A stretch of 64,000 nt of DNA from a virus: the IMG/VR virus record IMGVR_UViG_3300022916_000005; one strand, given 5' to 3'. Positions 12,830-62,755 of this stretch are shown here, in pieces. The first letter of the stretch is position 1; each line of letters opens with the position of its first letter. The translations under genes were made by a program, and so were the position numbers. The notes beneath the pieces were generated by a model that was not told the DNA's origin, did not search any database, and saw nothing but the letters and a program-made list of their open reading frames with translations.

Positions 12830-13836
12830 ATGGGTAAAGAAACTTACAAAAAATTTCACCAACATGACATCTGGTATTATCCAAGATGGAAATTGTTTTA
12901 CCTTGTTACAAAGGTTGAAGGGGATCTTTGTCGATTTGTGCCGATTATGAAACTATGGCTGACAATGCGCTCTTTTCATGTTCTCGGAGAACTTTCTCAC
13001 AATAGCATTTTTATTTCGAGGGTAGATGAAAGCTTTTAAAAAATATGACATTTTTCATCATACATTTGCGAATTGTGGAAGCAGGGAAGGATATATTTTG
13101 ATATTAGATGTGGAAAGGGATCGTGTTGAATATCTTCAATTAACTGGGAATAAAAAAACACATGTTTTTAGAAATTATAGCATATTTGCTTCTCGTTGCA
13201 TTCTCATCTCAAGGATAGATAATGAAGTTTAAAGTAGGTGACATTTATTATAATTATTATCACGGATACATTGTCATACTGGAAGTAAGATTTCATACCA
13301 GTATCGTATTTTACAAAGGAACAAAAACTCTTAGGGATTGGTTTAGCATTTACGGGTCACTTGCAGAAGACTTAACCCTTGTTTATGGTGGATAATGAAC
13401 AGTTTTAAAACAAATGATTTCGTATGGATACAGTACTATGGAAGTTATGCTCTTGTCAAAGAGGTTGAGATGTATAAGGCTTGGAGTGCTCAAAAGATAA
13501 AAGTAAGGACTTGTAGGTATAAGTGCATCTTACTTCCAATAAGAAGCAGTTTGAGTGCCCACTTTGAACAAGGCTCTGCTGTTGCAAATAGTTGCATCTT
13601 GATTGCTAGGGATTATAATGAATAACTTTAAAGTAGGAAACATCTATTATCATAAAAACGAATACGTTAGTGAAGGATTTGTTGTAATAATCAAGATCGA
13701 GGACAGTTATGAGGACAGTTATAATGTAAATCATCGATTTTGTACTTACTACTCTTCTGTTGAGAGGAGAACAGTTCCTTTTGAAACTGGTAGTAGATTT
13801 GCAAATCAATTACAATTAATTTACGAGGAGAAATAA
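12830..13836 (+). other. Cluster of ~5 small paralogous ORFs (12830-13039, 13026-13232, ~13222, 13395-13625, 13618-13836) behind a promoter at 12795-12823
   Basis: F(K/H)..D(I/F) starts and S.FA....LI(S/A)R ends; TTGCGT-17-TATAAT. Confidence 0.6.
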
Positions 13837-16800: not shown

Positions 16801-17253
16801 CTTGTAAGACCAACGTCACTTAAAAAGATGTTGGAGGCAGTAGACGCATTCAAGGATGAAGATGACTTTTCTCAAGATGATATGATTACGATGAAGTCAG
16901 AATTGACAGGGATGTACCCAATTGAATTGATCATGTCAGATGAACTTGACACAAGATTAAAAAATAAAGAGATTCAATCATTAGGTTCGATCTCCAAGAA
17001 GGAGAATGGAGTACATCTTTGTTGGACAATCCCTAAAGAGATCAAGACATTAAGAACAACAAGAGGATCTCAATACCTTATTGTTACATGTATTGATGAT
17101 ACGTTTGAAATTGTAAAGATCAAGTGTTGGAACGTTAACCCCAAATCGGATACGATTGCATTGAATAGAGTATATGCGGTGAAGTTAAAATACGATAAGA
17201 AGTGGGGATATTCTTGCGATGACTTTGGCAAATGTTTTAAGAGGCTAACATGA
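13837..17253 (+). CDS. dnaE: DNA polymerase III alpha subunit (family C)
   Basis: PHP domain (LHGHT, TDHG, DAHY), GPGRGS, FERFL, PDIDVD, KHAAG, KFDLLGL, YQE, YSFN.SH. Confidence 0.95.
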   Translation: MTLKNYVNLHGHTNDSIGDAIGSPVEHIDFAISNGAKAIALTDHGNMINFSAAYLYSQKLQEQGQDFKVIYGTEAYFIDDLEEWHDEYQEYKKSLKNKKTKKEEKGIEDDRTRGKVGRNPINRRYHLVLLAKNETGLKNLFKLISQSNSDYNYYRYPRIDYKMLEEHSEGLICLSACMGSRMANVYFKYKDKKNKEEQIIKEMTEVAEKHRSIFGKDYYLELQWNAFEDQHTINQYIIQVAQKLDIKLVSTTDAHYHKPELWQSREMYKRLAWLSKGKGEPLPESIEELGMELYPKNGEQMWDSYLNYGNGYTYDDNTIEDSITRTKEIADEIEVIKVKTDVEFPDFVSPEGKDAGEYLKELCYSSMIEKNLDNDKYSSRLEYELDVIIKRGFAEYFLLMNEIIEEAKRTQLVGPGRGSCGGSLIAYLLEITQIDPIRWGMQFERFLDIEGNSFPDIDVDFEDRAGLREIIEKKWKEKYGVDVVQISNFTTLKLKSLIKDLSKYHEIPYKEVNIVTTAMFEESESSIKEERGITAGILDNPTLDEVKKHSPSLREFLDNHPEVSKHMGALEGQKRSIGKHAAGIVIGSNITEKMPLVRSKGTLQTPWTEGISARHLEPLGFLKFDLLGLETLGMIRGAIEHTLKRHYNMPNPEFKDIQDYYNKNLHPDVLDFSDKMVYNNVYQGGNFVGIFQFARDNVQQFCMDVNPKGLRDVSAVTAIHRPGPLIAGVHRKFIKNRANSNSIGYQHPITKEVLKDNAGLVIYQEDIANLTHKLGKDLSLAEGNKLRKLLMKKGLGETGGKKEQIYKKFLAGCLEKGITKKEAEKMWKEFEGHSKYSFNFSHSLMYSAISYQCSWLLTHYPAEWIASYLQREKPANKEQAISSAKKAGFKIEDVNINTSGKVWEISEDGKTLIQPLNSLKGVGDAAVEEILKFRPFNTVEELLFNKEIRYGKLNKKVMDAFARVGALKDLYKDDSRFNHLRHFWSSTILVRPTSLKKMLEAVDAFKDEDDFSQDDMITMKSELTGMYPIELIMSDELDTRLKNKEIQSLGSISKKENGVHLCWTIPKEIKTLRTTRGSQYLIVTCIDDTFEIVKIKCWNVNPKSDTIALNRVYAVKLKYDKKWGYSCDDFGKCFKRLT

Positions 17254-17453
17254 AAAGTGAAGGGTATAAAGTTGGGGATATTTACTATCATACCGAATGT
17301 CGAGAGTATGTGGTGATTGTTGGGCATCTTAAGAGCGGGAAGGTTAGAGCGCGTTGTTGGACAAGAAAAGGTATAGGTGAGAACACAGTTTTTAAGCCAA
17401 ATTTGAACATGTATGCAAGATGTCTTATCCCAATTGTGGAGCGTAAAGAGTGA
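17250..17453 (+). CDS. Small KVGD-family hypothetical protein
   Basis: YKVGDIYYH. Confidence 0.55.
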   Translation: MKSEGYKVGDIYYHTECREYVVIVGHLKSGKVRARCWTRKGIGENTVFKPNLNMYARCLIPIVERKE

Positions 17454-17653
17454 GATATAGAAAAGACATCATCTCTATTGGAGATATTCGTAGGTCACTA
17501 AACTCAGGTATATTCTATTATGTTTATGGAACATGTAGACACAGTGTTAAGACTTATACTCTTCTTATTTTGAGTGGGTTATCTAAAGGAAGATATGTCC
17601 ACATCTTGAAAGGATCAATGTTCGCACAGGATTTGAGGCTTGTTTCGAAATGA
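17450..17653 (+). CDS. Small KVGD-family hypothetical protein
   Basis: ISIGDI, GSMFA..L.LVS. Confidence 0.5.
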   Translation: MRYRKDIISIGDIRRSLNSGIFYYVYGTCRHSVKTYTLLILSGLSKGRYVHILKGSMFAQDLRLVSK

Positions 17654-19179: not shown

Positions 19180-20045
19180 ATGAAGAAACTTAAAGTAGGT
19201 GACATATTCTTTCTCAAATCATCGGATATTTCCTATTCAAAATCTCGTCACTTTGGTATAATTACAAAAATCAAGAATGGAAGTTACAGTCTTTTTTGGG
19301 TTCGTTTGGCAGAAAGTAGAAAGTTTTCTGCCACAATTTGCGCTTCTTCTTTAGAAAGGTGGGAGAGGGAAGGTCGTTTAAAAGTCGTTATTCGAGGATA
19401 GTATGAAGTACCCAATTGGAACGATATTTTGTTATCACGGAATCAATTGCCCACCAACTTATTGGAAGTTTTGCATAATTATTGGACATAAAAGTAATTC
19501 GTATAGTGTAAAGTGGATTCGATATAACGGATCAACTGCGAAGTATCTCTTAGAAGTGAACAGTGTAAATCGTTGGACAGAAGATTGCAAAGGAATAATA
19601 CTTAAAATAGCATGAAGTACTCAATTGGAACGATATTTTATCACAAACCCTACACCAAAGAAGATGAGCCATTCCTTATTGTTGTTACAAGAGATAGTGG
19701 GGAATTTTGCTTATGCAACGTAAATTGGGCCTTTATTAGGAAAAATATAGAATGGGTATCTGGGACAATGAACAAGGATTGGGCAAGAAGAGAATTTAAT
19801 AATAATAATATGTACTGTATTGTAGAGTGAACATGAAGTACCCAATTGGAACAGTATTTTGTTATCACGAAATCAATTGCCCACCAAATTATTGGAAGTT
19901 TTGCATAATTATTGGACATAAAGATGGAACGTACTCTACAAAAATGATTCGTTATGATGGAAAAGCATACGCTGATTATGGATTTTGTTGTAATATAGAC
20001 CTGTGGGAAACGAACAACAAAGGAACAATATTTAAAATAACATGA
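19180..20045 (+). other. Tandem small paralogs (19180-19401, 19403-19615, 19612-19830, 19833-20045) with an ~90-bp direct repeat at 19403 and 19833
   Basis: MKY(P/S)IGT.F starts; near-identical DNA for 'MKYPIGT.FCYH.INCPP.YWKFCIIIGHK'. Confidence 0.7.
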
Positions 20046-21598: not shown

Positions 21599-22186
21599 AT
21601 GAACTATAGATGCAATCGAGAGCAAGAAAATCTCGAAGACGTACAGGAATGTCATTCTTCTGTCATTATTGTAGAAGAGGCACGCATTATTGGGATGTAT
21701 GGCGATATTGATTTTGAAAAGACGGCAGAAGTTATTCACGCCCTTGACCATTTTGGAATGGACGAAGATAATAAACAACCTGTTAGGTTTAACATTTCAA
21801 CTCCAGGTGGAGATCTTGTAAATGCTCTTGCGATTTATGACGCAATGATGGAACTAAGATCGAAAGGTGTTGAGATTCATACTAAAGGAGTGGGAGAAGT
21901 GTCTTCGGCAGGGGTTTGTTTAATAGCTGCTGGATCAAAGAGAGTGATGGGTCCAAATTGTCGCTTAATGATCCACGGTCTTTATTCTACTTTTAACGGA
22001 ACAATTGCAGAAATTGAAGACGAGATCAGAGAAACAAAGATCAGAGAAAAACAATATATTAAGATTCTAAAAGATCATAGCGAACTAACCGAAGAACAAT
22101 ATCAGCACTTTATTGATTCTGGCAAGAATGTGTTCATTTCTGCAGAATCTGCTTTAAAGTTCGGTTTAATTGACGAAATTCTATAA
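21599..22186 (+). CDS. ClpP-like protease subunit
   Basis: ISTPGG, AIYD, G.VSSAG, R.MIH, SAE.AL.FGLIDEI. Confidence 0.85.
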   Translation: MNYRCNREQENLEDVQECHSSVIIVEEARIIGMYGDIDFEKTAEVIHALDHFGMDEDNKQPVRFNISTPGGDLVNALAIYDAMMELRSKGVEIHTKGVGEVSSAGVCLIAAGSKRVMGPNCRLMIHGLYSTFNGTIAEIEDEIRETKIREKQYIKILKDHSELTEEQYQHFIDSGKNVFISAESALKFGLIDEIL

Positions 22187-22206
22187 AACAACAACAAGAG
22201 GAAGAA

Positions 22207-23766
22207 ATGAAACTATATTCAAGAGAAGAAGAGTTAAAGGCATCCTTGATTAAGGGTGCAGAACAAATTGCAAGCATTGTATCAAGCACTTTGGGTCCAA
22301 ATGGTTGTCCTGTCATTTTAAAAGCAAAGGGAGAAAAACCTTTAATTACGAAAGATGGAGTAACTGTTGCAAGATTTACAACATACGAAGACCCTTTTGA
22401 GAATGTCGCTGCATCAATCATCAAACAAGCATCAGAAGAAACAAATACCACTTGTGGAGATGGAACAACAACTACAACAATCTTGGCTAGTGCTATCTTT
22501 AAAGAGTCACAAAAATATATCTCTCTTGGTATTTCTCCTTACAAGTTAAAGAGGGAGATTGATGTAGTTGTAGAAAAGATCGTTACTCAAATTGCAGAAC
22601 TTGCAAAACCAATTGGTTCATTAAAAGAGATTCGAGATATTGCAAGGATTTCTGCAAACAACGATTCAAAGATTGGAGATCTTGTTGCAGATGCTATCGA
22701 TCAGATCGGTAGAGATGGAGCAATCACTATTGAAGAGGCCAGATCATTAGAGACAACGCTAGAGATTGCTGAAGGGTATAGATTCGATTCAGGATATGTT
22801 GCAAAAGATTTTATTACAGACACAAAGAATGGCTTGGCAAAGTTAGACAATCCTTACATTCTTGTCACTGATGAATCAATTGACAACATCAAATCAATTG
22901 CAAAGATTTTAGAGACTGTTGCAAGAGATGAATCGTCAATTGTTCTTATTGCAAACGATTTTGGGAAAGAAGTGTTGTCAACATTATTGATTAACCATAT
23001 TCGAGGAACAATCAAGAATGTAGCAATTAAGGCTCCAAGATACGGAGAAGAAAGAAGAGCAATTCTAGAAGATATTGCATTGGCAACTGGTTCAACGTTT
23101 ATTAACAAATTGGCAGGACTTAAAGTATCTGCCGTAGAGTTGAAGGATCTTGGAAGGGCAAAATCTATTGAGATTTCAAGTACAGAAACGATCATTGCCG
23201 AAGCTAATGGAGAACAAGGAAAGATCGAAGAACAGGTAGAGAAGTTAAAGTCATTGATTAAGCAGACAAATAATATGAAGGAAGCAGAGCGGATTCAAGA
23301 CAGAATTAATCAATTGTCTGCTGCTGTTGGGATCATCAAGGTAGGTGGTAGAACTGAAGTAGAAGTGACAGAGAAGAAATTTAGAATTGAAGATGCCTTA
23401 GAAGCTGCAAAATCTGCCATCGAAGAAGGAATTGTCCCTGGTGGTGGTACAACATATTTAAGAGCGATTTTAGACATTAATGACCATTCCGATGTAGAGT
23501 ATGGATACAAAATTGTTTACAATGCAGTAATGGAACCGCTGAAGATCATGGCTGCAAGAACAAAAGACACATCAGAAAGACAAATTTTTAACAAGTTGAC
23601 CAACGATGACACGAGCGGATATGACTTTGCAAATGAAGAATTTGTAGATGACATGTTTGAAATTGGAATTGTGGATCCTGCAAAAGTATTGAAATATGCA
23701 TTAAGAAATGCAGCAAGTGCAGCAACTACATTACTCATTACAAATCATGCCGCGATAGAAGAATAA
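22207..23766 (+). CDS. groEL: Phage-encoded GroEL-like chaperonin
   Basis: TLGP.G, ITKDGVTVA, GDGTTT, FDSGY, KAP..GE.R, EEGIVPGGG, GIVDP.KV. Confidence 0.93.
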   Translation: MKLYSREEELKASLIKGAEQIASIVSSTLGPNGCPVILKAKGEKPLITKDGVTVARFTTYEDPFENVAASIIKQASEETNTTCGDGTTTTTILASAIFKESQKYISLGISPYKLKREIDVVVEKIVTQIAELAKPIGSLKEIRDIARISANNDSKIGDLVADAIDQIGRDGAITIEEARSLETTLEIAEGYRFDSGYVAKDFITDTKNGLAKLDNPYILVTDESIDNIKSIAKILETVARDESSIVLIANDFGKEVLSTLLINHIRGTIKNVAIKAPRYGEERRAILEDIALATGSTFINKLAGLKVSAVELKDLGRAKSIEISSTETIIAEANGEQGKIEEQVEKLKSLIKQTNNMKEAERIQDRINQLSAAVGIIKVGGRTEVEVTEKKFRIEDALEAAKSAIEEGIVPGGGTTYLRAILDINDHSDVEYGYKIVYNAVMEPLKIMAARTKDTSERQIFNKLTNDDTSGYDFANEEFVDDMFEIGIVDPAKVLKYALRNAASAATTLLITNHAAIEE

Positions 23767-24992: not shown

Positions 24993-25057
24993 AAGTCCTT
25001 GACAATCCCCTCCATTCGTATTATAATATGACATAACTTGATATAGGTAGGTCCAAA

Positions 25058-25312
25058 ATGATTCAATTCCTTCTCGCTTGTTTGGGTCTTTTTCTGATCA
25101 TATTCCTCATTTTGGTAAGTCGTTATTATGAGGAAAAATTGGAGGAAGAAGTCCATAAAACAAGATGCCCAAAATGTGGTGGAATGTGGAAGATACACAA
25201 CTGGTTTCGCGGTATGGTGGTTCTTTCTTGCCCCAAATATCACGAGTTAAACCATGTCAGCCTTTCCTCATTTGAACAATTTGAAAAATATTGCAACAAC
25301 AAGGAAGGATAA
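25058..25312 (+). CDS. Membrane-anchored Zn-ribbon protein (paralog of 28117)
   Basis: N-terminal TM, CPKC...CPK; promoter at 24999-25027. Confidence 0.6.
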   Translation: MIQFLLACLGLFLIIFLILVSRYYEEKLEEEVHKTRCPKCGGMWKIHNWFRGMVVLSCPKYHELNHVSLSSFEQFEKYCNNKEG

Positions 25313-25830
25313 TGATCAAGCCATATCAAATTTGGGCAGATGGCACCGTCATTTATAATCGCGATCACTATACTCCAAGACCTGATGGTTGTGCCATTAG
25401 TATCCCAGAGAAGATAATCATTTGGTATCAAAATAACAAGTATCACCGCACTGATGGTCCTGCCATTGAATATGCCAATGGTGGCAAAGAATGGTATCAA
25501 AATAACAAGCGTCACCGCTTTGACGGCCCTGCCATTGAATTTGCCAATGGCGACAAATCTTGGTACATTGATGGCAAGTGTCACCGCATTGACGGCCCTG
25601 CCATTGAATATGCCAATGGTACCAAATTTTGGTTTCAAAATGGCAAATATCACCGCATTGACGGCCCTGCCATTGAATATGCCAATGGTGACAAATTTTG
25701 GTATCAAAATGGCAAACATCACCACATTGACGGCCCTGCCGTTGAATATGCCAATGGTACCAAATTTTGGTATATTGATGGTGTCGAATATTCCGAGCAT
25801 GACTATAAAATTGAGATGAGCAACAAATGA
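25312..25830 (+). CDS. MORN-like HRxDGPA repeat protein, class I (5 repeats)
   Basis: 23-aa/69-bp repeats; [16 protein letters not shown]-cap. Confidence 0.85.
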   Translation: MIKPYQIWADGTVIYNRDHYTPRPDGCAISIPEKIIIWYQNNKYHRTDGPAIEYANGGKEWYQNNKRHRFDGPAIEFANGDKSWYIDGKCHRIDGPAIEYANGTKFWFQNGKYHRIDGPAIEYANGDKFWYQNGKHHHIDGPAVEYANGTKFWYIDGVEYSEHDYKIEMSNK

Positions 25831-26958: not shown

Positions 26959-27369
26959 ATGAAATGGTATCAGATCTTCTCAGATGGAACCGTTATTTAT
27001 GATGATGATTTAAAACAGGATACGATATACCCTGACGGTTGTTCCATTGAAATTCCAACAAAATCTTTGAGATGGTTTAAGAACAACAAGCTTCATCGAG
27101 ATGGTGGTCCTGCCGCCGTTTATACCGATGGTACCAAACATTGGTTTCAAAATGGCAAACATCACCGCATTGACGGCCCTGCCATTGAACGTGCCAATGG
27201 TGACAAATTTTGGTATCAAAATGGCAAACATCACCGCATTGACGGCCCTGCCTGTGAATATGCCAATGGTGGCAAATATTGGTACATCGAAGGGATCAAA
27301 TACACAAAGGAAGGACATCAAATTGTTGTCGATTCAATGACAAAGGAGAATGAGAATGAAAACACCTGA
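26959..27369 (+). CDS. MORN-like HRxDGPA repeat protein, class I divergent (3 repeats)
   Basis: YQIFSDGTVIY N-cap and repeats. Confidence 0.85.
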   Translation: MKWYQIFSDGTVIYDDDLKQDTIYPDGCSIEIPTKSLRWFKNNKLHRDGGPAAVYTDGTKHWFQNGKHHRIDGPAIERANGDKFWYQNGKHHRIDGPACEYANGGKYWYIEGIKYTKEGHQIVVDSMTKENENENT

Positions 27370-28116: not shown

Positions 28117-28359
28117 ATGTTAGGTTATTTTCTTATTGGTTTGATTATCTTTTCGTTAATTTATGCAATTTGGGGAGAAATCGATCTAAATAAAAGAATT
28201 GAAGAATGCAAATGTCCAGAATGTAACGTAAACTTTATGATCTTTGCAAAAATTCATAGTGTTGCGTTTGTGCAGTGTCCAAAGTGTGGATTGCATAATC
28301 AGTATGTTAGTAGGTATACCATCAAAGATTTTGAAAAGCGTTACAACAATGGCATTTAA
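28117..28359 (+). CDS. Membrane-anchored Zn-ribbon protein (paralog of 25058)
   Basis: TM, CPEC...CPKC; promoter at 28058-28086. Confidence 0.6.
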   Translation: MLGYFLIGLIIFSLIYAIWGEIDLNKRIEECKCPECNVNFMIFAKIHSVAFVQCPKCGLHNQYVSRYTIKDFEKRYNNGI

Positions 28360-28756
28360 TTCTTACCAAATATGGGCAGATGGCACCGTCATTTATGATG
28401 GCGATTATGATACTCCAAAGCCTGACGGTTGTGCCATTGGTATCCCAGACAAGGCAATTGCTTGGTATCAAAATAACAAGTATCACCGCATTGACGGCCC
28501 TGCCGTTGAATGTGCCAGTGGTGACAAATTTTGGTATCAAAATGGCGAGTATCACCGCATTGACGGCCCTGCCATTGAATATATCAATGGTACCAAATAT
28601 TGGTTTCAAAATGGCAAACATCACCGCATTGACGGCCCTGCCCGCGAATATGCCAATGGTGAAAAATATTGGTACATTGAAGGTGTCTGTTATTTCGAGC
28701 ACAAATACAACATCAAGATGAAAACTTATCACAATGAAAAAGAAAAAGAAGCATAA
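28349..28756 (+). CDS. MORN-like HRxDGPA repeat protein, class I (3 repeats)
   Basis: Repeats and class I N-cap. Confidence 0.85.
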   Translation: MAFNSYQIWADGTVIYDGDYDTPKPDGCAIGIPDKAIAWYQNNKYHRIDGPAVECASGDKFWYQNGEYHRIDGPAIEYINGTKYWFQNGKHHRIDGPAREYANGEKYWYIEGVCYFEHKYNIKMKTYHNEKEKEA

Positions 28757-30678: not shown

Positions 30679-31189
30679 AGACATCAAGGTAGGAGATATA
30701 TTTCGTGTCATTAATAATGATAAGACTTTTTCTACGACTCCTTTTCTAATTAATTTTGTCATGGAGACTTCGGCACCTTATTTCGAAATTGGATACATAT
30801 TGGTTGGTTCTCATCTTGGCAGATTAAGTCTTAATAAAGAAGATGGTGTACGGTGGCACAGAGTTGCAACATCATATGACAGAGAGAGGAATAGGATGAG
30901 TCGTAGTGTAAAAAAGAATGCCGTTCATTCTTTTACAACTAGAGGTTCGAGAGCAGGAGCACAAAAAAAGTGGAAAAAGGGAAATAACAAGAAAAGTAGG
31001 CGTGATGTAAATGAAATCACCAAACTTGTTTCTTTGTTGACGGAAGAGGGAATCGACGAAGTTGAAGATAAACTTGATCTGCCATTGACAAGAAAGAAAA
31101 AGACTGGAGACATTTGGGATTCTCCTTGTGATGGAAAGACACGAGTATATCAAGATGAAGATTATTACGAAGAGGCACTAAGAAAGTGA
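30668..31189 (+). CDS. Hypothetical protein; apparently a KVGD ORF in frame with a basic 'MSRSVKK..W..DGK' protein (internal start ~30896)
   Basis: Internal AGGA RBS plus ATG, and a composition shift. Confidence 0.5.
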   Translation: MKYKDIKVGDIFRVINNDKTFSTTPFLINFVMETSAPYFEIGYILVGSHLGRLSLNKEDGVRWHRVATSYDRERNRMSRSVKKNAVHSFTTRGSRAGAQKKWKKGNNKKSRRDVNEITKLVSLLTEEGIDEVEDKLDLPLTRKKKTGDIWDSPCDGKTRVYQDEDYYEEALRK

Positions 31190-31986
31190 TCAAGCTATAT
31201 CAAATTTGGGCAGATGGCACCGTTATTTACGATGACGATCATGATACTCCAAAGCCTGACGGTTGTGCCATTGGTATCCCAGACAAGACAATCACTTGGT
31301 ATCAAAATGGCAAACTTCACCGCACTGACGGCCCTGCCATTGAATATGCCAATGGTGACAAATCTTGGTATCAAAATAGCAAACTTTACCGCATTGACGG
31401 CCCTGCCATTGAATATGCCAATGGTGACAAACATTGGTATCAAAATGGCAAGCGTCACCGCATTGACGGCCCTGCCGTTGAACATGCCAATGGTGACAAA
31501 TCTTGGTGTCAAAATGACAAGTGTCACCGCATTGACGGCCCTGCCGTTGAATTTGCCAATGGCGACAAATCTTGGTACATTGATGGCAAGTGTCACCGCA
31601 TTGACGGCCCTGCCATTGAACATGCCAATGGTGCCAAATATTGGTATCAAAATGACACACTTCACCGCATTGACGGCCCTGCCGCCATTTATGTCAATGG
31701 TACCAAACATTGGTTTCAAAATGGCAAATATCACCGCATTGACGGCCCTGCCCGCGAATATGCCAATGGTGGCAAAGAATGGTATCAAAATAACAAGCGT
31801 CACCGCATTGACGGCCCTGCCATTGAATCTGCCAATGGTGCCAAATTTTGGTATCAAAATAACAAGCGTCACCGCATTGACGGCCCTGCCATTGAACATG
31901 TCAATGGTGACAAATCTTGGTACATTGATGGGAAGCGCTATTCCGAGCATGACTACAACATCAAAATAAGGAAACTAAATGATTAA
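31186..31986 (+). CDS. MORN-like HRxDGPA repeat protein, class I (9 repeats)
   Basis: Nine 69-bp units. Confidence 0.88.
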   Translation: MIKLYQIWADGTVIYDDDHDTPKPDGCAIGIPDKTITWYQNGKLHRTDGPAIEYANGDKSWYQNSKLYRIDGPAIEYANGDKHWYQNGKRHRIDGPAVEHANGDKSWCQNDKCHRIDGPAVEFANGDKSWYIDGKCHRIDGPAIEHANGAKYWYQNDTLHRIDGPAAIYVNGTKHWFQNGKYHRIDGPAREYANGGKEWYQNNKRHRIDGPAIESANGAKFWYQNNKRHRIDGPAIEHVNGDKSWYIDGKRYSEHDYNIKIRKLND

Positions 31987-32386
31987 TAATGAAGTAAAAT
32001 GTTCTTTTAACCCAATTCCAAAGAGGAAGAGAGGGAAAGATCAAGAAACAAAAAAAGCAGGAAGGTACTTTCGTTCCATAATCCGTGTAAAAGGACTACA
32101 AGACAGCAAGTGGGCAATTCTTGCAAATCTTGATATTCCAGAGTTTAATAGCCTTCTTGAAGAAGGGCACACAAAGGAAGATATTGTCAAAGCAGGACTA
32201 AAATATCTTAACGAAGAGCAAATTCCAAAAACGAAGGATGGAACTCCAAAAAAGGGTGGCAAACTTCCTTATGGAAAAATCCAATTTTACAAGATGGTTC
32301 CAAATGATCAGGACAAAATTCAGTGTCTATTGACGACAAATAACAGAAGCAGTTCTCACTTTTGGGGAGAAGGGGTCAAATTGTAA
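31979..32386 (+). CDS. Hypothetical basic protein
   Basis: Coupled ORF. Confidence 0.55.
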   Translation: MINNEVKCSFNPIPKRKRGKDQETKKAGRYFRSIIRVKGLQDSKWAILANLDIPEFNSLLEEGHTKEDIVKAGLKYLNEEQIPKTKDGTPKKGGKLPYGKIQFYKMVPNDQDKIQCLLTTNNRSSSHFWGEGVKL

Positions 32387-32862
32387 TGATTGAGTCTTAC
32401 CAAATATGGGCAGATGGCACCGTCATTTATGATGACAATAATGACATTCCAAAGCCTGACGGTTGTGCCATTAGTATCCCAAGCAAGACAATCATTTGGT
32501 ATCAAAATGGCAAACATCACCGCATTGACGGCCCTGCCATTGAACATGCCAATGGTACCAAATATTGGTTTCAAAATGGCAAACTTCACCGCATTGACGG
32601 CCCTGCCCGCGAATATGCCAATGGTGACGAACTTTGGTATCAAAATGGCAAGCGTCACCGCATTGACGGCCCTGCCGTTGAATATGTCAATGGTGACAAA
32701 CATTGGTATCAAAATGGCAAGCGTCACCGCATTGACGGCCCTGCCGTTGAACGTGCCAATGGTGGCAAATATTGGTACATCGAAGGGATCAAATATTCCG
32801 AGCATGACTACAATATTAAAATCATTAATTTAAGCAAGGGCAAAAATAATGACTCACTATGA
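32386..32862 (+). CDS. MORN-like HRxDGPA repeat protein, class I (4 repeats)
   Basis: Repeats and N-cap. Confidence 0.85.
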
Positions 32863-33445
32863 CACTTTAGAGATTAATGAAAACTCTTCCAAAAAAGAGA
32901 TCAAAAGTTCATACAAGAGACTTGCAAAGATCTATCATCCCGACAAAGATACCGGAGATGAAGAGACATTCAAAGAGATCAATGTTGCCTACACTATCTT
33001 GTCTGATGAGGAAAAGAGAAAACAATATGACAACCAACTGAATGTTGAGAAGTATCATGACTACCAAGAGCAAATGTTTCGAGAGAGAATTCAGAGAAAC
33101 AATAAACCGAAAGAGTGGAAACCCTCAACAGAAAAAGATGTCAAAATCAATTTAAGGACAGATGTTAAAGCTATTCAAGAAGGGTTTGAAGGAGAAGTTG
33201 AATACGTATTAAGAGTAATTTGTAAAGATTGTAATGGTGAAGGTGGAGAAGGAAAGAAAGACTGTGCTGATTGTAATGGAAGCGGAGTTGTCGTAAACTC
33301 TAATGGACCTTTCTTCCAAGCTTCAATGTGTCGCAAATGTGATGGCAAAGGGAAAACGTTTGACAATCCGTGCGATACCTGTTATACTACAGGAGTAACA
33401 ATGGAAAAACATACAATCAAATTTGATGTCAAAGAAAGGAAATAA
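32849..33445 (+). CDS. dnaJ: Compact DnaJ-like co-chaperone (J domain plus Zn finger)
   Basis: HPD motif; four CxxCxGxG-like motifs; lacks the G/F region and CTD-II. Confidence 0.85.
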
Positions 33446-33895
33446 ATGATCAAGCCATATCAAATTTGGGTAGATGGCACCGTCATTTACGATGACAATA
33501 AAGACATTCCAAAGCCTGACGGATGTGCCATTAGTATCCCAGACAAGACAATTAAATGGTATCAAAATGACAAACTTCACCGCACTGACGGCCCTGCCAT
33601 TGAATGTGCCAATGGTACCAAAATTTGGTATCAAAATGGCAAGTGTCACCGCATTGACGGCCCTGCCATTGAACATGCCAATGGTACCAAATATTGGTAT
33701 CAAAATGGCAAGTGTCACCGCATTGACGGCCCTGCCATTGAATATACCAATGGTGCCAAATTTTGGTATCAAAATAACAAGCGTCACCGCATTGACGGCC
33801 CTGCCATTGAATCTGCCAATGGTGACAAATCTTGGTACATTGATGGGAAGCGCTATTCCAAGCATGACTACAAAATTAAGATAAGTAACAAATGA
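33446..33895 (+). CDS. MORN-like HRxDGPA repeat protein, class I (4 repeats)
   Basis: Repeats and N-cap. Confidence 0.85.
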   Translation: MIKPYQIWVDGTVIYDDNKDIPKPDGCAISIPDKTIKWYQNDKLHRTDGPAIECANGTKIWYQNGKCHRIDGPAIEHANGTKYWYQNGKCHRIDGPAIEYTNGAKFWYQNNKRHRIDGPAIESANGDKSWYIDGKRYSKHDYKIKISNK

Positions 33896-37013: not shown

Positions 37014-37715
37014 TTAAATTCTTTTTGGGATTTCTTTTAAAGAGATAAGTTCGTGATCGAATTCCCAATGACAATTACGACACAAGACTAATAAATTTGA
37101 AGGATCGTTTACTTCTTTTATAAGGGCCTCGTCAGGATATGAAGAAACTGGCTTGATGTGACACAATTCGATGTGTTTATCATACCCACAATTTTGACAA
37201 GGTTGTTTTGTAAGTGACTTGTTCCAAGATCGACAAAAGGCCCTGACATGAGCGTGAGCCCAAGAAGGATGTTTGTCTTTAACAGATGATGTTTCTCTAT
37301 ATTTTTTGATAGGAGTGTTCTTTGTTTTTTCTTTTGTGCTATTATGAGTACAATCGATGCAAATTCCGCTCTTATTTCTAGAAGGGTCTCTTGAGATTTC
37401 TTTGTTACATTGAGTACAATATCTCTTTGGTAAGTTTGGTCCTCTTTTTCTTGTTTGTCTAATTGTTCTTTGGTCTAGCTCTTCCTTTTGTTTGGACTTG
37501 CACGAAGAACATACGATTCTTTGGTCTTTGTAGTTTTTTCTATCAACAGGATTCCCGCAATGAGTGCATGTAATTGTTTTTAATTTGCACTTTGGATATT
37601 TTTTGTTATTATAGGAGGCAGCACAACTACGGTTACAAAAGTGATTGGGGGATTTTCTAATTTCAGTATCGCTTTTATCAAATTCGGTTCCACAATGAAG
37701 ACAGGTTACTAACAT
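37014..37715 (-). CDS. HNH homing endonuclease with Zn-finger repeats
   Basis: Multiple CxxC, CHIKP, NLLVLCRNCHWEFD. Confidence 0.85.
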   Translation of the reverse strand: MLVTCLHCGTEFDKSDTEIRKSPNHFCNRSCAASYNNKKYPKCKLKTITCTHCGNPVDRKNYKDQRIVCSSCKSKQKEELDQRTIRQTRKRGPNLPKRYCTQCNKEISRDPSRNKSGICIDCTHNSTKEKTKNTPIKKYRETSSVKDKHPSWAHAHVRAFCRSWNKSLTKQPCQNCGYDKHIELCHIKPVSSYPDEALIKEVNDPSNLLVLCRNCHWEFDHELISLKEIPKRI

Positions 37716-37787
37716 ATTATATTTTCCTTTTGTTGTTATATAGTAAATAGTTTGCAATAAAGGAAACGACCTAACATTTTTACTTAT

Positions 37788-40566: not shown

Positions 40567-41783
40567 ATGAAATCTGCAGGAAATGTCAAGGCTGGCGATA
40601 TTATTGTCTGGAAAAGTGGTAATAATATCGCCAACTCTGTGGTAATTAAAGTTGAACTAGACCGTTTTGCATTAAGTGAAGTTATAGAAATCAAAAACTA
40701 TGGAGAGAAGCGAAGTGGATTTTTAAATAAAGAGAAAACAAAAATTAGTATAAAAACTTTGAAGACTACAAAAGACTAAAGTGGAACGACTATGCCTCCA
40801 ATTTTTGGCAAGTTATTGACGTATATGGACCCAAAGAATAATGAATAAAAGAGTTAGACAATTGGTTCATGACATAAAGTCTCTTAAAGTTGGAGATGTC
40901 GTTATCTACAGGAGAGGTTCAGATAGGTGTATTGGGTATACAATTATAACAGAAGTTGGAGAACTTATTCGTTGGAAGACCAACATTATATCGAATAGAA
41001 ACGACTTCTTCCTTGGAAAAGGTTGTGAAGAAAAGTATCGTTTGATCAGTTATGCCAAAAGACAAAACAGTTCTACTCCTGGATTAGTTTGGGATCCTAT
41101 TTATGTGATTAAAGTTGATGAAGATGTTTGATGTCAAAAACTTAAATGTAGGAGACATCCTCGTTTGGAAAACCATAGGTGGAAAAGTTACTTACACCAC
41201 AATTTTAGGCATGTACGGAGAAGACCTCTCCAAAAAATATGTAGCTAGGAGTTTTTTAATTAATGTTGGCATGTTCGATGAAGTGGATAAGATATTCTCC
41301 ATAATAAACTTAGAAGAGTGGCAAGAAAAAAGAGTAGACTTGGAAGATTATTGGCAGTTAGTTGACATTATCACTTCGGAGAAGAAGCAATGAATCAAAC
41401 ATTACGACAATTTGCAATCGTGAACCTATCCCTCATCTTGTCAAAGCTTTCGGTTGCAGAAGAAAAGGCATCAGCCCCAACAACCGAATTGTCAGGATCT
41501 GTTGAACAACCGGCACAACAGACAGAACCTCCAAAGAAGAGTAATCCTATCGGGTTTTGCAGGTAAAACCATGAATCATCGAGATATTATGTTAAAGGTA
41601 GGAGATATTATTTGCTTCCATGTCGAAAGTTTCGACACTAAAGAACAAGAGACATATGAAACATATATTGTCATCTTTGCAGATGAAAAAAAGGTCAAGA
41701 CAAGGTGTGTGCAAACTGAGAAAATTGACATAGATAGTCAAGGTCTTCACGAGGGTGAAATTTTAATTAAAATTGCTCATTGA
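40567..41783 (+). other. Cluster of small KVGD-family ORFs (40567-40779, 40841-41131, 41124-41393, 41571-41783)
   Basis: KAGDII / KVGDVV / NVGDIL / KVGDII. Confidence 0.55.
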
Positions 41784-42259: not shown

Positions 42260-43180
42260 AATTCAAAGTAGGAGATATCATATGGGACATTGACATAAAA
42301 TGTTATGGGTATATCTTCAAAATTGACAGTGACAAGGAATACAGAAGATTTCCTCTCTATTGTTGTCGTTATTTCCCTAAGATTAGACATTCCAATTTCT
42401 CTCATACCTCCATCAGAGAGAAAGAATCAATTCTCATTTCAAGGTTGAATTGACATGGATGATATGAAGTTCAAAGTAGGAGATTTAATATGGAATGACA
42501 ATCATGAATGTTATTGTTACATCCTCGATATTGATTCAGTAAGATTTCGCTTTGTCTATTATCACAATACTCTTTTCACTAAAACAGGAAATGTCGATAA
42601 TTATTTCTCAAAAGGCTCTCCAACAGAAAAAGAAAGCTTTCTTATTTCAAGGTTGAATCGATATGAATGATTTGAAGTTCAAAATAGGAGACATTATATG
42701 CGATTCTTATGATGGTTCTCTATATTATATTCGAGGATTTACCCCGCGTGCTGGCAGTGGGTCTGGGGAATATAATATTGTCTTCATTGTTTCAAATTCG
42801 ATTGGTATGGTTAATTCGTGTAATTATGATCATCTTGTAGTTGGAGGAACAGCATATGAAGAGTCATTTTTGGTCTTAAGGATTGGCAAGTAATGCGTTG
42901 CGAAGAACTAAAACTACACGACTTTGTCATATCAACAGATAATAAAGGAGAATTTAATGAAGAAAGTCATTATGAGATAGTTGTGATGGTTTCGACTGAC
43001 GGGACACACATCTCTCACGATGGCAAGGTAAAAAATTACGCTCAAAATAAAATAAAAAACTATTGCTATGTGACATTTTATAGGTTCTCTGATAAAAGAT
43101 ACTATCTTGATGTTTACAAAGAAGAAAGTAGGAACAAAGAGAATCAAGATATGTATATTTTAATTTCGAGAGCACAATAG
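42226..43180 (+). other. Tandem small paralogs ending in ES.LISR (to 42453, 42455-42670, 42663-42893, 42893-43180)
   Basis: LKFK(V/I)GD(I/L)I starts. Confidence 0.55.
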
Positions 43181-47605: not shown

Positions 47606-48511
47606 ATGGGATACATGCATATTGACAATCTTGAGAAGCCGAGGGCACAAAGGATTTTAGACTTTAAAGAGGTTTACGTAGTTGAGAAAATTCACGGCAC
47701 GAGTTCAAATTTATCCTTTAAAATCAATGAGTTAGGAGAAGAAGAATTGAGGTTCTTTTCTGGAGGGATGAGTCATCAACTCTTCATTAACATTTTTGAT
47801 CAGGATGCTCTTCTTGCCAATTTCCGCAATCTTGGTGTGCAAGCGATTACCATCTATGGCGAAGCGTATGGCGGAAGTATGCAAAAGATGTCGCATTCAT
47901 ATGGCAAGGAGGCCAAGTTCATTGCATTTGATGTCAAAATTGTTGATCATTGGCTCGATTTCGACAAGGCCCATAAACTAGTGACAGACGACATGAATCT
48001 TGAATTCGTATGGTTTACCAAGTCGAGTACAGACATTGAAGAGTTGATCAAGTGGCGTAATCAGGAATGTCAGCAGGCAATCCGTAATGGTATGGGTCAC
48101 GGGCATAAGAGTGAAGGGATCGTAATTCGACCATTGTGGGAATGTGCTACCAACAATGGAAAGCGAATGCTTGTCAAGTTCAAGAATGCCGATTTCCAAG
48201 AAAGAAAGAACCCTCCATCGGTTGAGGATATGCTCAAGAAAGAAGAGAAGCTCAAAGTTCTTGCAGATGCGAGAAAGATTGCAGATGAGTGGGTAACAGA
48301 AATGAGGCTCACTCACGTACTTGACAAGATTGTGGGTGAAATTGATATGACTCGTACTGGCGAAATTATCAAGGCAATGCAAGAAGATGTTCTCCGAGAG
48401 GCAGAGGGAGAAATTATTGTATCAAAGAATACGTTAGGGCAGATTGCCGCAACAACGGCAAAGATGCTCAAGCGTCGATTGAATGACAATTTGATGAATA
48501 AAGAAAGATAA
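47606..48511 (+). CDS. RNA ligase, Rnl2-like nucleotidyltransferase family
   Basis: EKIHGT motif I, IYGE, FIAFDV, EGIVIRP, K.KN. Confidence 0.8.
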   Translation: MGYMHIDNLEKPRAQRILDFKEVYVVEKIHGTSSNLSFKINELGEEELRFFSGGMSHQLFINIFDQDALLANFRNLGVQAITIYGEAYGGSMQKMSHSYGKEAKFIAFDVKIVDHWLDFDKAHKLVTDDMNLEFVWFTKSSTDIEELIKWRNQECQQAIRNGMGHGHKSEGIVIRPLWECATNNGKRMLVKFKNADFQERKNPPSVEDMLKKEEKLKVLADARKIADEWVTEMRLTHVLDKIVGEIDMTRTGEIIKAMQEDVLREAEGEIIVSKNTLGQIAATTAKMLKRRLNDNLMNKER

Positions 48512-48897
48512 TGATCAAGCCATATCAAATTTGGGTAGATGGCACCGTTATTTACGATGACGATTATGATACTCCAAAGCCTGACGGATGTGCCATTAGT
48601 ATCCCAGACAAGACAATTAAATGGTATCAAAATGGCAAACTTCACCGCATTGACGGCCCTGCCATCGAATATGCCGATGGTGGCAAATCTTGGTATCAAA
48701 ATGGCAAACATCACCGCATTGACGGCCCTGCCATTGAATATGTCAATGGTGACAAATGTTGGTATCAAAATGGCAAGTGTCACCGCATTGGCGGCCCTGC
48801 TCTTGAATATATTGATAGTTACAAATTTTGGTATATTGATGGTATCAAATATTCCGAGCAAGACTATAGTATTGAAATTGCTAGGAGAAGTAAATGA
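48511..48897 (+). CDS. MORN-like HRxDGPA repeat protein, class I (3 repeats)
   Basis: Repeats and N-cap; TAATG overlap with the ligase. Confidence 0.85.
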   Translation: MIKPYQIWVDGTVIYDDDYDTPKPDGCAISIPDKTIKWYQNGKLHRIDGPAIEYADGGKSWYQNGKHHRIDGPAIEYVNGDKCWYQNGKCHRIGGPALEYIDSYKFWYIDGIKYSEQDYSIEIARRSK

Positions 48898-49178
48898 AAA
48901 AGAGAACTAAAACAATATTGGGAACATTGAGCACAATTGGAAGTTTTATCTTCTTAGTTTGGTTTATCGGAACATGCAACAGGTCATGTGAACGATATGC
49001 AGAATATCAGAGGTGCGAAATTTCTGTAGTCTCGGAATTCTGTAAAACACAAGGATATTTGACAGGGAACGGAGATATTTATCGTGAGCAATTCCAATGT
49101 GTAAATAAAGATGGAACTATAAGTAAAAATCTGTCTGCAAAAGTTCTTGTTAATCTTAAATCTCGATGTCCTAGATAA
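48894..49178 (+). CDS. Membrane-anchored Cys-rich hypothetical protein
   Basis: N-terminal TM. Confidence 0.55.
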   Translation: MKKRTKTILGTLSTIGSFIFLVWFIGTCNRSCERYAEYQRCEISVVSEFCKTQGYLTGNGDIYREQFQCVNKDGTISKNLSAKVLVNLKSRCPR

Positions 49179-49187
49179 AATAACTAT

Positions 49188-49261
49188 TCTCCGATAACTT
49201 AGTTGGTCAAAGTATTCTCCTTATAAGAGAAAAATCGTCGGTTCGATCCCGACTCGGAGAA
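49188..49261 (+). tRNA. tRNA-Ile(TAT)
   Basis: TCTCCGA/TCGGAGA acceptor, TTCTC-CTTATAA-GAGAA, GTCGG-TTCGATC-CCGAC, A73. Confidence 0.85.
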
Positions 49262-49620
49262 CCTTTCCACCTTGACAACTCGTTTCCCTCGTGATATCAT
49301 GTACTTGTGAATGGGAACCTCCATCATCGAGAACGATATGTACAATGAACTAGAAAAAATAAAAAGTTACAAAAGAATGTTGTTCTTTGATACCCACTCA
49401 GAACAGTACTTTGTTGTAAAAGATGTTGTTTTGTTCCCTAAATTGTATTGTCGAAATGTGTCATGCAGAGACAACAAGAACGAGAATTGTCATTCTTGGA
49501 ATTCAAGTGGAATCAGGATGTTCTGCTTTTACAAAAATAACTCAGCTAGTACAACTTGCATTTCGTCAACAAGTTTCTTAAACAAAGTTGAAATTGGAGA
49601 ATACGATGTCATCTCAAGAA

Positions 49621-55601: not shown

Positions 55602-55605
55602 TATC

Positions 55606-58296: not shown

Positions 58297-58692
58297 ATGA
58301 TGGCGAATTTCGAGACATATGAAGTGAGAGTGTATGCCAATGGTACCAAATGTTGGTATCAAAATGGCAATTGTCACCGCATTGACGGCCCTGCCGTTGA
58401 ATGTGCCAGTGGTGACAAATTTTGGTATCAAAATGGCGAGTATCACCGCATTGACGGCCCTGCCATTGAATATATCAATGGTACCAAAGTTTGGTATCAA
58501 AATGGCAAGTTTCACCGCATTGACGGCCCTGCCATTGAATATGTCAATGGTGACAAATATTGGTATCTTGATGGAGAATGCTATACCGAGCATGACTATA
58601 ACACCGAGATTGCCAAGCGAAATGCCAATACTTGCGAAGATCGCCTTGTCGAGATTGACGGTATCAAGTACAAGCTGATCAAGGCTTGCTAA
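58297..58692 (+). CDS. MORN-like HRxDGPA repeat protein, class II (3 repeats)
   Basis: MANFETYEVRVY N-cap; EIAKRNANTCEDRLVEIDG C-cap. Confidence 0.85.
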   Translation: MMANFETYEVRVYANGTKCWYQNGNCHRIDGPAVECASGDKFWYQNGEYHRIDGPAIEYINGTKVWYQNGKFHRIDGPAIEYVNGDKYWYLDGECYTEHDYNTEIAKRNANTCEDRLVEIDGIKYKLIKAC

Positions 58693-58778: not shown

Positions 58779-59057
58779 ATGGATAAAATCAAAGCTATCT
58801 TGTGGGATAAGTTTGTAGAGGATAAATTCCTTGAAGATGCTACTTTAGGACAGATTCAGGCAGAACTACGAACTATAGAGAAAGAACTTGTAATTGCAAA
58901 CTGTGAACAAGCATCAGAAGAAAACGATTATCGACCTGGAGTGGAAACTTATGGTTACTTCGATTTAGAGCAAATCAAGCTCACTCTTGAGTATATCTCT
59001 GATCGTTGGAATTGTCAGTTTAGGGTCAGATGGCTACTAGACCTCATTAACATTTAA
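58779..59057 (+). CDS. Hypothetical protein
   Basis: Behind the promoter cassette at 58712. Confidence 0.6.
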   Translation: MDKIKAILWDKFVEDKFLEDATLGQIQAELRTIEKELVIANCEQASEENDYRPGVETYGYFDLEQIKLTLEYISDRWNCQFRVRWLLDLINI

Positions 59058-59131
59058 ACTTTCCCCTTGACTTGACGGTCATCCCGTAGTATCATGTATC
59101 TAGAAACGGTCAAGAAATAACAAACGAGGCA

Positions 59132-59662
59132 ATGATGGCGAATTTCGAGACATATGAAGTGAGAGTGTATGCCAATGGTGACAAATTTTGGTGTCAAAAT
59201 GACAAGTTTCACCGCATTGACGGCCCTGCCGTTGAATATGTCAATGGTGACAAACATTGGTATCAAAATGGCAAGCGTCACCGCATTGACGGCCCTGCCG
59301 TTGAATATGTCAATGGTGACAAACATTGGTATCAAAATGGCAAGCGTCACCGCATTGACGGCCCTGCCGTTGAACATGCCAATGGTGACAAATCTTGGTA
59401 TCAAAATGGCAAGTGTCACCGCATTGACGGCCCTGCCGTTGAATCTGCCAATGGTGACAAATTTTGGTATCAAAATGACAAGTGTCACCGCATTGACGGC
59501 CCTGCCTGTGAATATGCCAATGGTGACAAAGATTGGTATCTTGATGGAGAATGTTATACCGAGCATGACTATAACACCGAGATTGCCAAGCGAAATGCCA
59601 ATACTTGCGAAGATCGCCTTGTCGAGATTGACGGTATCAAGTACAAGTTGCTCAAGGTCTGA
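59132..59662 (+). CDS. MORN-like HRxDGPA repeat protein, class II (5 repeats)
   Basis: Repeats and caps; own promoter at 59067. Confidence 0.88.
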   Translation: MMANFETYEVRVYANGDKFWCQNDKFHRIDGPAVEYVNGDKHWYQNGKRHRIDGPAVEYVNGDKHWYQNGKRHRIDGPAVEHANGDKSWYQNGKCHRIDGPAVESANGDKFWYQNDKCHRIDGPACEYANGDKDWYLDGECYTEHDYNTEIAKRNANTCEDRLVEIDGIKYKLLKV

Positions 59663-59749
59663 CAATCCTGCCAAAACTTTCCCCTTGACTTGACGGTCAT
59701 CCTGTGGTATCATGTATCTAGAAACGGTCAAGAAATAACAAACGAGGCA

Positions 59750-60142
59750 ATGATGGCGAATTTCGAGACATATGAAGTGAGAGTGTATGCCAATGGTACC
59801 AAATGTTGGTGTCAAAATGACAAGTTTCACCGCATTGACGGCCCTGCTGTTGAACATGCCAGTGGTTTCAAAGTTTGGTATCAAAATGGCAAGTTTCACC
59901 GCATTGACGGCCCTGCCGTTGAACGTGCCAATGGTGACAAATTTTGGTTTCAAAATGGCAAATATCACCGCATTGACGGCCCTGCCGTTGAATCTGCCAA
60001 TGGTGACAAATATTGGTATCTTGATGGTGTCGAATATTTCGAGCATGACTATAACACCGAGATTGCCAAGCGAAATGCCAATACTTGCGAAGATCGCCTT
60101 GTCGAGATTGACGGTATCAAGTACAAGTTGCTCAAGGTCTGA
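59750..60142 (+). CDS. MORN-like HRxDGPA repeat protein, class II (3 repeats)
   Basis: Tandem cassette copy; promoter at 59685. Confidence 0.88.
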   Translation: MMANFETYEVRVYANGTKCWCQNDKFHRIDGPAVEHASGFKVWYQNGKFHRIDGPAVERANGDKFWFQNGKYHRIDGPAVESANGDKYWYLDGVEYFEHDYNTEIAKRNANTCEDRLVEIDGIKYKLLKV

Positions 60143-61393: not shown

Positions 61394-61786
61394 ATGGCGA
61401 ATTTCGAGACATATGAAGTGAAAGTGTATGACAATGGTGACAAATCTTGGTATCAAAATGGCAAGTGTCACCGCATTGACGGCCCTGCCATTGAATATGC
61501 CGATGGTGACAAATCTTGGTATCAAAATGGCAAGTGTCACCGCATTGACGGCCCTGCTGCCGAATATGCCGATGGTGACAAATTTTGGTATCAAAATGGC
61601 AAGCGTCACCGCATTGACGGCCCTGCCATTGAACGTGCCAATGGTGACAAATGTTGGTACATTGATGATAAGTACTATTCCGAGCATGACTACAATGCCG
61701 AGATTACCAAGCGCAATGCCAATACCTGCGAAGATCGCCTTGTCGAGATTGACGGCATCAAGTACAAGCTGATCAAGGCTTGCTAA
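61394..61786 (+). CDS. MORN-like HRxDGPA repeat protein, class II (3 repeats)
   Basis: Repeats and caps. Confidence 0.88.
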   Translation: MANFETYEVKVYDNGDKSWYQNGKCHRIDGPAIEYADGDKSWYQNGKCHRIDGPAAEYADGDKFWYQNGKRHRIDGPAIERANGDKCWYIDDKYYSEHDYNAEITKRNANTCEDRLVEIDGIKYKLIKAC

Positions 61787-62362: not shown

Positions 62363-62755
62363 ATGATGGCAAATTTCGAGACATATGAAGTGAGAGTGTA
62401 TGCCAATGGTGACAAACATTGGTATCAAAATGGCAAACATCACCGCATTGACGGCCCTGCCATTGAATATGTCAATGGTGACAAATATTGGTATCAAAAT
62501 GGCAAACATTACCGCATTGACGGTCCTGCTGTTGAATATGCCAATGGTGAGAAACATTGGTATCAAAATGGCAAACATCACCGCATTGACGGCCCTGCCG
62601 TTGAATATGCCAATGGTGACAAATCTTGGTATCTTGATGGTGTCGAATATTTCGAGCATGACCACAACAACGAGATTGCCAAGCGAAATGGCAATTCCTG
62701 CGAAAATCGCCTTGTCGAGATTGAAGGCGTCAAGTACAAGTTGCTCAAGGTCTGA
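62363..62755 (+). CDS. MORN-like HRxDGPA repeat protein, class II (3 repeats)
   Basis: Repeats and caps. Confidence 0.88.
   Translation: MMANFETYEVRVYANGDKHWYQNGKHHRIDGPAIEYVNGDKYWYQNGKHYRIDGPAVEYANGEKHWYQNGKHHRIDGPAVEYANGDKSWYLDGVEYFEHDHNNEIAKRNGNSCENRLVEIEGVKYKLLKV

Follow-up and report, generated by a model that had tools for sequence, protein, structure and literature searches.

Twelve genes encoded in the 64,000-nucleotide stretch of viral DNA considered in the current analysis (the window) contain 48 in-frame copies of a repeat unit of 69 nt, and these 48 units act as one exchanging DNA pool. The family is probably one of binding proteins that evolves by gene conversion together with diversifying selection. 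The initial annotation of this DNA, which was centred on one of the twelve genes and took in all 48 units, had proposed diversifying selection coupled with homogenising conversion as the first of two readings, and this reading is now supported by a 3.8-fold ratio of amino acid altering to silent diversity at the variable codons, by silent divergence of the units that is uniform across the genes and by strain-specific patches that match donors elsewhere in the window.

The unit encodes the 23 residues HRIDGPAxExANGxKxWYQNGKx. A search with the 21-nt anchor CACCGCATTGACGGCCCTGCC, in which up to 5 mismatches were allowed, has revealed 47 occurrences, all of them in frame and on the plus strand, and a protein-level pattern adds one degenerate unit, which brings the count to the 48 originally claimed. 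The 12 genes that carry them are all encoded on the plus strand, are intact ORFs, several of them with a promoter-like site of their own, and fall into two classes.

Class A comprises seven genes located between 25 and 49 kb, with a common N-terminal cap and a short C-terminal tail. The first of them (25312..25830) has 5 units, with anchors at 25444-25720, and a consensus sigma-70-like site at 24999-25027 is tied to it. It is followed by genes at 26959..27369 (3 units, one of them degenerate), 28304..28756 (3 units) and 31186..31986, the locus of the initial annotation, which has 9 units (anchors 31318-31870) in the order given by the metagenome assembly. The remaining members are located at 32386..32862 and 33446..33895 (4 units each; the protein of the latter has been modelled) and at 48511..48897 (3 units). 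Class B comprises five genes between 58 and 63 kb whose caps (MMANFETYEV... and ...CEDRLVEIDGIKYKL) are unrelated to those of class A. Four of these genes, at 58297..58692, 59750..60142, 61394..61786 and 62363..62755, have 3 units each, and the fifth (59132-59662, 5 units) is part of a 618-nt plus-strand cassette (59056..59673) along with a promoter-like site at 59067-59095. Near 25441, the repeat core continues upstream, in contigs of two sequencing runs, into an unrelated sequence from outside the window, which suggests at least one further paralog with a third type of N-terminal cap elsewhere in the genome or in the population.

Between units of class A and class B, the silent divergence of the scaffold (pS) is 0.071, a value indistinct from those within the two classes (0.052 and 0.079), and the units differ by 9.96 nt per 69 within a gene and by 9.09 between genes. 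The caps are much more diverged; in class A the pS of the N-cap is 0.263 and that of the C-tail 0.557, and the class B C-cap has a pS of 0.215. The range for these caps, 0.21-0.56, stands against 0.05-0.08 for the unit scaffolds, a pattern of concerted evolution. Judged by these values, the caps are older than the units of their own genes. The exception is the class B N-cap (16 codons), whose pS is 0, and some of the gene duplications are therefore very recent. Exact runs of 115, 119 and 89 nt are common to genes with unrelated caps that are situated 26-30 kb apart, and the runs shared between class A and class B genes include rare variants. The segment 28483-28597 of a class A gene is identical over 115 nt to 58374-58488 of a class B gene, and 32634-32752 is identical over 119 nt to 59257-59375, which is the longest exact run between any pair of paralogs in the window.

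Low silent divergence, N-caps with a pS of 0 as in class B and variable codons that are all one step away from a common ancestor codon would also be left if units and genes had been duplicated in one recent burst and point mutations had then come under positive selection, without ongoing exchange between genes. Such a history is unlikely, because silent divergence in the caps exceeds that in the units of the same genes by a factor of four to nine, units of genes with unrelated caps are not differentiated from each other, and strains that are identical over 10 kb flanks differ by multi-site patches with exact donors elsewhere.

These patches have been identified by comparison of the window with contigs of the same phage, which represent near-identical strains from other seawater samples. 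The four strain comparisons are mutually non-independent and all of them involve metagenome assemblies. Unique DNA has 4 mismatches in 43.0 kb and repeat-gene DNA has 51 in 8.3 kb, with six of the nine events located in repeat genes (binomial p 0.001). Another 23 kb of unique sequence, situated upstream of the window, adds a single mismatch. The strain differences of this phage are almost only in the repeat genes. The only mismatch of the window to contig L001, at 28472, also falls within a repeat gene (28304..28756), a single event which proves nothing alone.

Contig L092 (ENA, k=141) has three bases changed within 7 nt (27224, 27227 and 27230) in the three-unit gene at 26959..27369, and over 43 nt the changed stretch matches 31641-31683 of the nine-unit gene, 4 kb off, without a mismatch. 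Contig L093 (ENA, k=141) has no mismatches over 48300-58413 and then nine in 98 nt (58414-58511) in the first of the class B genes. Six of the nine changes are found in a 63-nt stretch identical to 31690-31752, again in the nine-unit gene and 27 kb away. Both the k=141 variants have thus an exact paralogous donor, of 43 nt and 63 nt, as in segmental gene conversion. The 618-nt cassette is missing in L093, a difference by gain or loss. A third contig, L091, has no mismatches over 49753-59797 and then a different allele at the 59750 locus (37 mismatches at 59798-60143) that is 98.3% identical to the L093 allele at the 58297 locus; this allele is given less weight because it is situated 125 nt from the contig end and could be a misjoin.

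An artefact of short-read assembly through repeats has been considered, as the Logan contigs from four runs are all interrupted within each of the repeat genes. MORN-repeat proteins, to which the present proteins are structurally similar as described below, have been found to be 37 times under-represented in marine viral assemblies as compared with long reads (PMC9238414). It is nevertheless extremely unlikely that the pattern is an artefact of this kind. Errors of assembly may permute units and cannot create variant codons or fix silent sites, and the independent JGI and ENA assemblies agree by 99.94-100% over most of the repeat genes. Since the paralogs share at most 119 nt exactly, it is improbable that the k=141 contigs represent graph chimeras. 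The 'other letters' of Logan contigs inside the repeats were also considered as micro-diversity and have been set aside as misplaced pieces of paralogs, as exemplified by 31378/31385, which match the 62441/62510 junction. The repeat genes disrupt assembly from short reads and are under-counted, which is a caution for metagenomics.

The codons that vary have been analysed in 35 internal units by the method of Nei and Gojobori. Scaffold codons 1-17 have a pS of 0.064 and a pN of 0.030, and the hypervariable codons 8, 10, 11, 14, 16 and 23 have a pS of 0.075 and a pN of 0.389. The ratio of the hypervariable pN to the silent pS of all 23 codons (0.103) is 3.78, with a confidence interval of 2.75-5.65 by bootstrap over units. 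When the changes are placed on a minimum spanning tree of the units, the hypervariable nonsynonymous sites (14.3) receive 83 nonsynonymous events, as compared with 17 silent events at 13.4 silent sites. The diversity at positions 10, 16 and 23, and less so at 8, 11 and 14, is about four to five times that of silent sites. A dN/dS near or below 1 at these codons had been named at the outset as a result that removes the argument for selection, and the argument has survived this test.

A fit over 49 distinct related phage loci, with scaffold pS from 0.05 to 0.90, gives a hypervariable pN of 0.398 + 0.17 x scaffold pS and a scaffold pN of 0.007 + 0.15 x scaffold pS. The hypervariable diversity of these loci thus holds at 0.40 as the silent divergence nears zero. 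A sequence from a 316-kb contig (L016) represents a second extreme case, with a pS of 0.051 and a hypervariable pN of 0.396. Both L016 and another relative, L059, have nucleotide scaffolds of their own with the variable positions unchanged, and L059 uses an NNC series at codon 14. The nonsynonymous diversity at defined codons therefore exceeds the synonymous diversity within the window, as given by the ratio, and across the 49 loci, as given by the intercept.

At codons 10, 16 and 23 the first position is almost only T or C and the second position has all four bases. The residues found there are Tyr, His, Phe, Cys, Arg, Ser and Leu, with Asn, Asp, Thr, Ala, Gly and Pro almost missing. This first-position pyrimidine bias with a free second position is a filter on residue type. 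The variable positions might be taken as free of constraint or as mutational hot spots that do not reflect any selection for diversity, and the diverged relatives, in which a hypervariable pN of about 0.5 is found near a pS of 0.3-0.7, are compatible with neutrality. This explanation is very unlikely, because both the window and L016 have 5-8 times as much diversity at the hypervariable codons as at silent sites, because codons 10, 16 and 23 are nearly purine-free at position 1 despite many transversions at position 2, and because the variability tracks the protein position and not the local DNA across differing nucleotide scaffolds. From the diversity ratios we infer that the excess diversity is maintained by selection for differing residues on a ligand-binding surface. 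Fast re-diversification after homogenisation and retention of old variants cannot be separated by these data, and both amount to diversifying selection with conversion.

The variants also retain traces of their origin. Hypervariable Arg is encoded by CGY in 19 of 19 cases, yet CGY makes up 14% of the Arg codons of this phage; Ser is TCT in 14 of 14 cases and Leu is CTT in 5 of 5. All the variable codons are one-step neighbours of each other, and the variants therefore arose in place by point mutation. Conversion spreads and re-assorts the variants so born. Codon preference has been considered as a cause of the fixed silent sites and rejected, as the scaffold is written in the rarest codons of the phage (CGC, 4% of Arg; GGC, 13% of Gly; GCC, 18% of Ala).

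A tally of the unit codons agrees with the codon lists of the initial annotation. Codons after GAA are all NNT, namely TAT (27), CAT (7), CGT (4), TCT (4), TGT (3) and TTT (2). Nine NNT codons precede TGG, along with GAA in two units. Codons after GGT are GAC, ACC, GGC, GCC, TAC and TTC and also GAA and GAG, and those before CAC are TGT, CGT, CAT, TAT, CTT and TTT with a few others, mostly in terminal units. Among the scaffold codons, CCT is conserved in 47 of 47 units, CGC, GAA and AAA in 46, GGC in 45 and GCC in 43, and CAA is found in 33. The silent sites had been described as frozen in the repeat units; this stands for the nearly fixed scaffold codons 1-17 and does not extend to codon 18 (TAT/TAC, 33/8), codon 21, where all four GGN codons are used, mainly in the last units, or codon 22 (24 AAG and 11 AAA).

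The variation in the hypervariable codons falls at codon positions 1 and 2, and their third bases are exactly as quiet as the other silent sites. Since they are no quieter, the NNY look of these codons is accounted for by low silent divergence and an excess of change at positions 1 and 2, and no separate rule is involved. The third base is still T or C because the variable codons go back, by single-base steps, to one ancestral codon. The possibility that NNY represents a designed, stop-free set of codons has been rejected, as relatives carry NNG and NNA codons at the same positions.

Variation at positions 1 and 2 with a fixed third base, which avoids stop codons, resembles the AAY-codon diversification by a DGR, and the second reading in the initial annotation was a non-canonical templated mutagenesis. 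A DGR or other RT-templated mutator that rewrites the variable codons from a template repeat is close to refuted by the present data. The hallmarks looked for, namely an RT, a template repeat and variation confined to adenines, are all absent from the DNA examined. The substitution spectrum is not adenine-directed, as 32 of the 87 hypervariable changes on the tree (37%) are C/T, with 54 transitions against 33 transversions. At half of the variable nucleotide positions A is rare or absent, and it is never found at codon 10 position 1 or codon 11 position 2. Silent adenines are invariant in GAA (46/46), AAA (46/46) and CAA (33/33), and the absence of GAA>GAG and CAA>CAG changes noticed earlier is borne out by counts of 0 GAG and 0 CAG at these scaffold positions of the units. 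With a profile of the unit (nhmmer), no further copy beyond those in the 12 genes is found on either strand of the window (best E 0.15). No RT family is found among the 20 window ORFs of 135-649 aa that were scanned, and RVT_1 has no match in five related phage records of 29-318 kb with similarly homogenised arrays, in a search for which control genomes were positive. These searches covered the window and relatives, and about 100 kb or more of the phage genome lies outside. The same positions also vary in related phages with differing scaffolds, whose variable codons use every third base, and the targets here are many as against the one variable repeat of a DGR. Templated mutagenesis applies here only trivially, in that homologous recombination lets one paralogous unit serve as the template for another. 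No new mutator is needed, because the DGR-like codon signature has an ordinary cause.

The fold of these proteins has been analysed with an AF2 model of the 149-residue product of the gene at 33446-33895, built with a 38-sequence alignment (pLDDT 88.8). The model has short strands recurring every 23 residues and a C-terminal helix, a beta-hairpin array of MORN type. In a Foldseek search, the six best matches (E below 1e-3) are to chains of MORN1 and to junctophilin-2, followed by MORN4 (E 1.7e-3). The twelve genes encode small cap-repeat-cap proteins in which, according to this model, each unit forms one turn of a MORN-type beta-hairpin array. Strands are predicted at unit positions 8-9, 15-16, 18-19 and 22-23, which places the variable residues in or beside strands with i/i+2 spacing (8/10 and 14/16). 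These strand positions and the spacing fit an arrangement of the variable residues on one exposed face.

At the level of sequence, protein P0001 is assigned to DUF6745 (PF20530) with 31.1 bits against a curated cut-off of 27, the shorter paralogs score under this cut-off, and most of the homologues carry PF20530. No match to the MORN profiles (PF02493 / PF07661) is found; MORN_2 gives an E of 8.3 and 7.4 bits against a cut-off of 29.6. The 23-residue period and the elongated beta-hairpin array are shared with eukaryotic MORN1, MORN4 and junctophilins, which are the best structural matches, whereas the sequence profiles fail, the conserved Gly, Trp and His are spaced differently and about 95% of the atlas clusters of the DUF6745 repeat family are viral. 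The family comprises more than 7,600 proteins at E 1e-3 and at least 529 stretches in viral contigs. Its members are encoded also by the cultured Celeribacter phage P12053L and Agrobacterium phage Atu_ph07, in which they are annotated as hypothetical. DUF6745 arrays reach 1,900 residues, and the extra length of the longer homologues is mostly due to the array itself. Fusions (Fic, PTPS, RING and others) have been considered as a clue to function and set aside, as they are occasional and have no consistent partner.

Several repeat genes are preceded by sigma-70-like sites, three of which have 11-12 of 12 consensus matches, and 38 promoter-like sites are observed over 54-64 kb against 22 expected. 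The position of such sites upstream of the repeat genes points to early expression. The proteins may be viewed as early-expressed cytoplasmic binders of host or phage targets, and these targets would change fast, as host defence proteins do. A binder role against changing host targets is our best guess for the function of the family.

Ectopic homologous recombination between units copies short patches, from at least 7 nt to at least 63 nt, from gene to gene, and the same process moves whole promoter-gene cassettes and alters the number of units and genes. Such exchange keeps the silent sites near-identical throughout the pool while the variable codons are reshuffled. The invariant cores of 21 nt and 18 nt could supply the required homology, and the RecA-family recombinase of the phage itself would drive the exchange. 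The gene of this recombinase (384 aa, RecA_N) is encoded along with gp32-like and 5'-3' exonuclease genes at 2773-7351 of contig L094, 3-7 kb upstream of the window. The contigs of this region are 99.99-100% identical to the window, and the RecA-family gene is situated about 6 kb upstream.

TAL effector repeats of Xanthomonas are made up of near-identical tandem DNA units with few variable codons and variable unit number, and their paralogs recombine. The present units are likewise near-identical and vary at a few fixed codons, with the difference that they encode a 23-residue beta-hairpin and not a helical unit of 34 residues, have five or six variable positions as against two, and belong to a phage-encoded family with no evidence for a code of one unit to one base or for DNA binding. 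As in Neisseria pilE/pilS and Borrelia vlsE, short patches are derived from paralogous donors at a rate far above point mutation. Those systems have a single expression site fed by silent donor cassettes, whereas here the twelve copies are all intact ORFs. The logic of surface antigens is not applicable to these repeat proteins, because they have no signal peptide or virion context. The evolutionary mode is that of TAL effector repeats and of gene-conversion variation systems, and its cause is ordinary in kind. Multigene families of repeat proteins in giant viruses (ankyrin, MORN, FNIP) and the K3L accordions of poxviruses are thought to serve host interaction (PMC5753266). The present family is similarly an expanded, virus-encoded repeat family that changes copy number between strains, as seen with the 618-nt cassette, though the host here is a bacterium and the repeat is of DUF6745 type. 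In the literature searched, neither DUF6745 proteins nor MORN-like proteins of phages are described as evolving in concert, with hypervariable codons and with patches that match donors. A literature search on MORN with phage or jumbo phage gave a passing mention only, and one on DUF6745 gave 0 papers.

The family is very large and almost entirely viral, and it bears the hallmarks of a repertoire of binders that is subject to diversifying selection. As the strain differences of this phage concentrate in the repeat genes, the DUF6745 repeat family is a candidate for proteins of the phage-host arms race. The repeat is in addition a natural small beta-hairpin scaffold with a cysteine-poor core and with its variable positions already mapped. 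As a tentative proposal, which we consider possible and rather less than probable, the DUF6745 genes may constitute a widespread phage repertoire of customisable binders, with a pool of hairpin units continuously re-assorted by the phage recombination system. Sister virions would then differ in their sets of binding surfaces, which would be directed against rapidly changing targets in the host, for example defence proteins, and the system would be an RT-free, recombination-based counterpart of DGRs and of the assembly of VLRs in jawless vertebrates.

The window is part of the genome of a large marine myovirus that is present in at least 17 seawater or marine metagenome runs. It has 36-43% GC, and nearly all its genes are encoded on the plus strand. 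Contig walking extends the phage genome by at least 97 kb upstream of the window, and genes for a tail sheath and a T4-type baseplate are located further upstream (contig L096). A megablast search with 20 kb has identified no close phage relative in GenBank, and the exact 21-nt anchor has no match in IMG/VR. The window encodes ThyX, ribonucleotide reductase, a DnaB-type helicase and a PolIII-alpha-type polymerase. It also encodes a GroEL-like protein, ClpP, DnaJ, RtcB and two RNA ligases.

The ClpP, the GroEL-like chaperonin and the DnaJ, which has a zinc-finger domain, are encoded at 21599-23766 and 32849-33445, and the DnaJ gene is sandwiched by the repeat genes 32386-32862 and 33446-33895. 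The DnaB-type helicase gene (2146-4095; DnaB_C, 49 bits) has a weak internal match to intein splicing (24.6 bits, below the cut-off) and adjoins a GIY-YIG/NUMOD3 homing-endonuclease gene at 918-1958. Within 36939-57821, nine tRNA genes have been identified, with those for Ile(TAT) and Val(AAC) among them. An Rnl2-type ligase (47606-48511), an Rnl1-type ligase (51137-52318) and RtcB (60231-61358) are encoded near them, and together with the tRNAs they look like a set for tRNA supply and repair. An HNH endonuclease gene (37014-37757), one of the few minus-strand genes of the window, is situated between two tRNA genes.

A second expanded family is made up of dozens of ORFs of 55-100 residues that start with (K/R)(V/I)GD(I/V) and form several tandem runs, at 8236-8841, 13026-13836, 17250-17653, 19180-19615, 40567-41393, 42455-42893 and other places; no family match was obtained for them in the look-ups that covered them. 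A 78-nt unit is repeated 2.3 times at 54773-54949, and every copy has TTGACA-17-TACGAT with an upstream TG, which results in stacked strong promoter-like sites. A 10-nt tandem repeat of 5.3 copies at 63454-63506 contains two (63477 and 63480) of the four strain mismatches in unique DNA.
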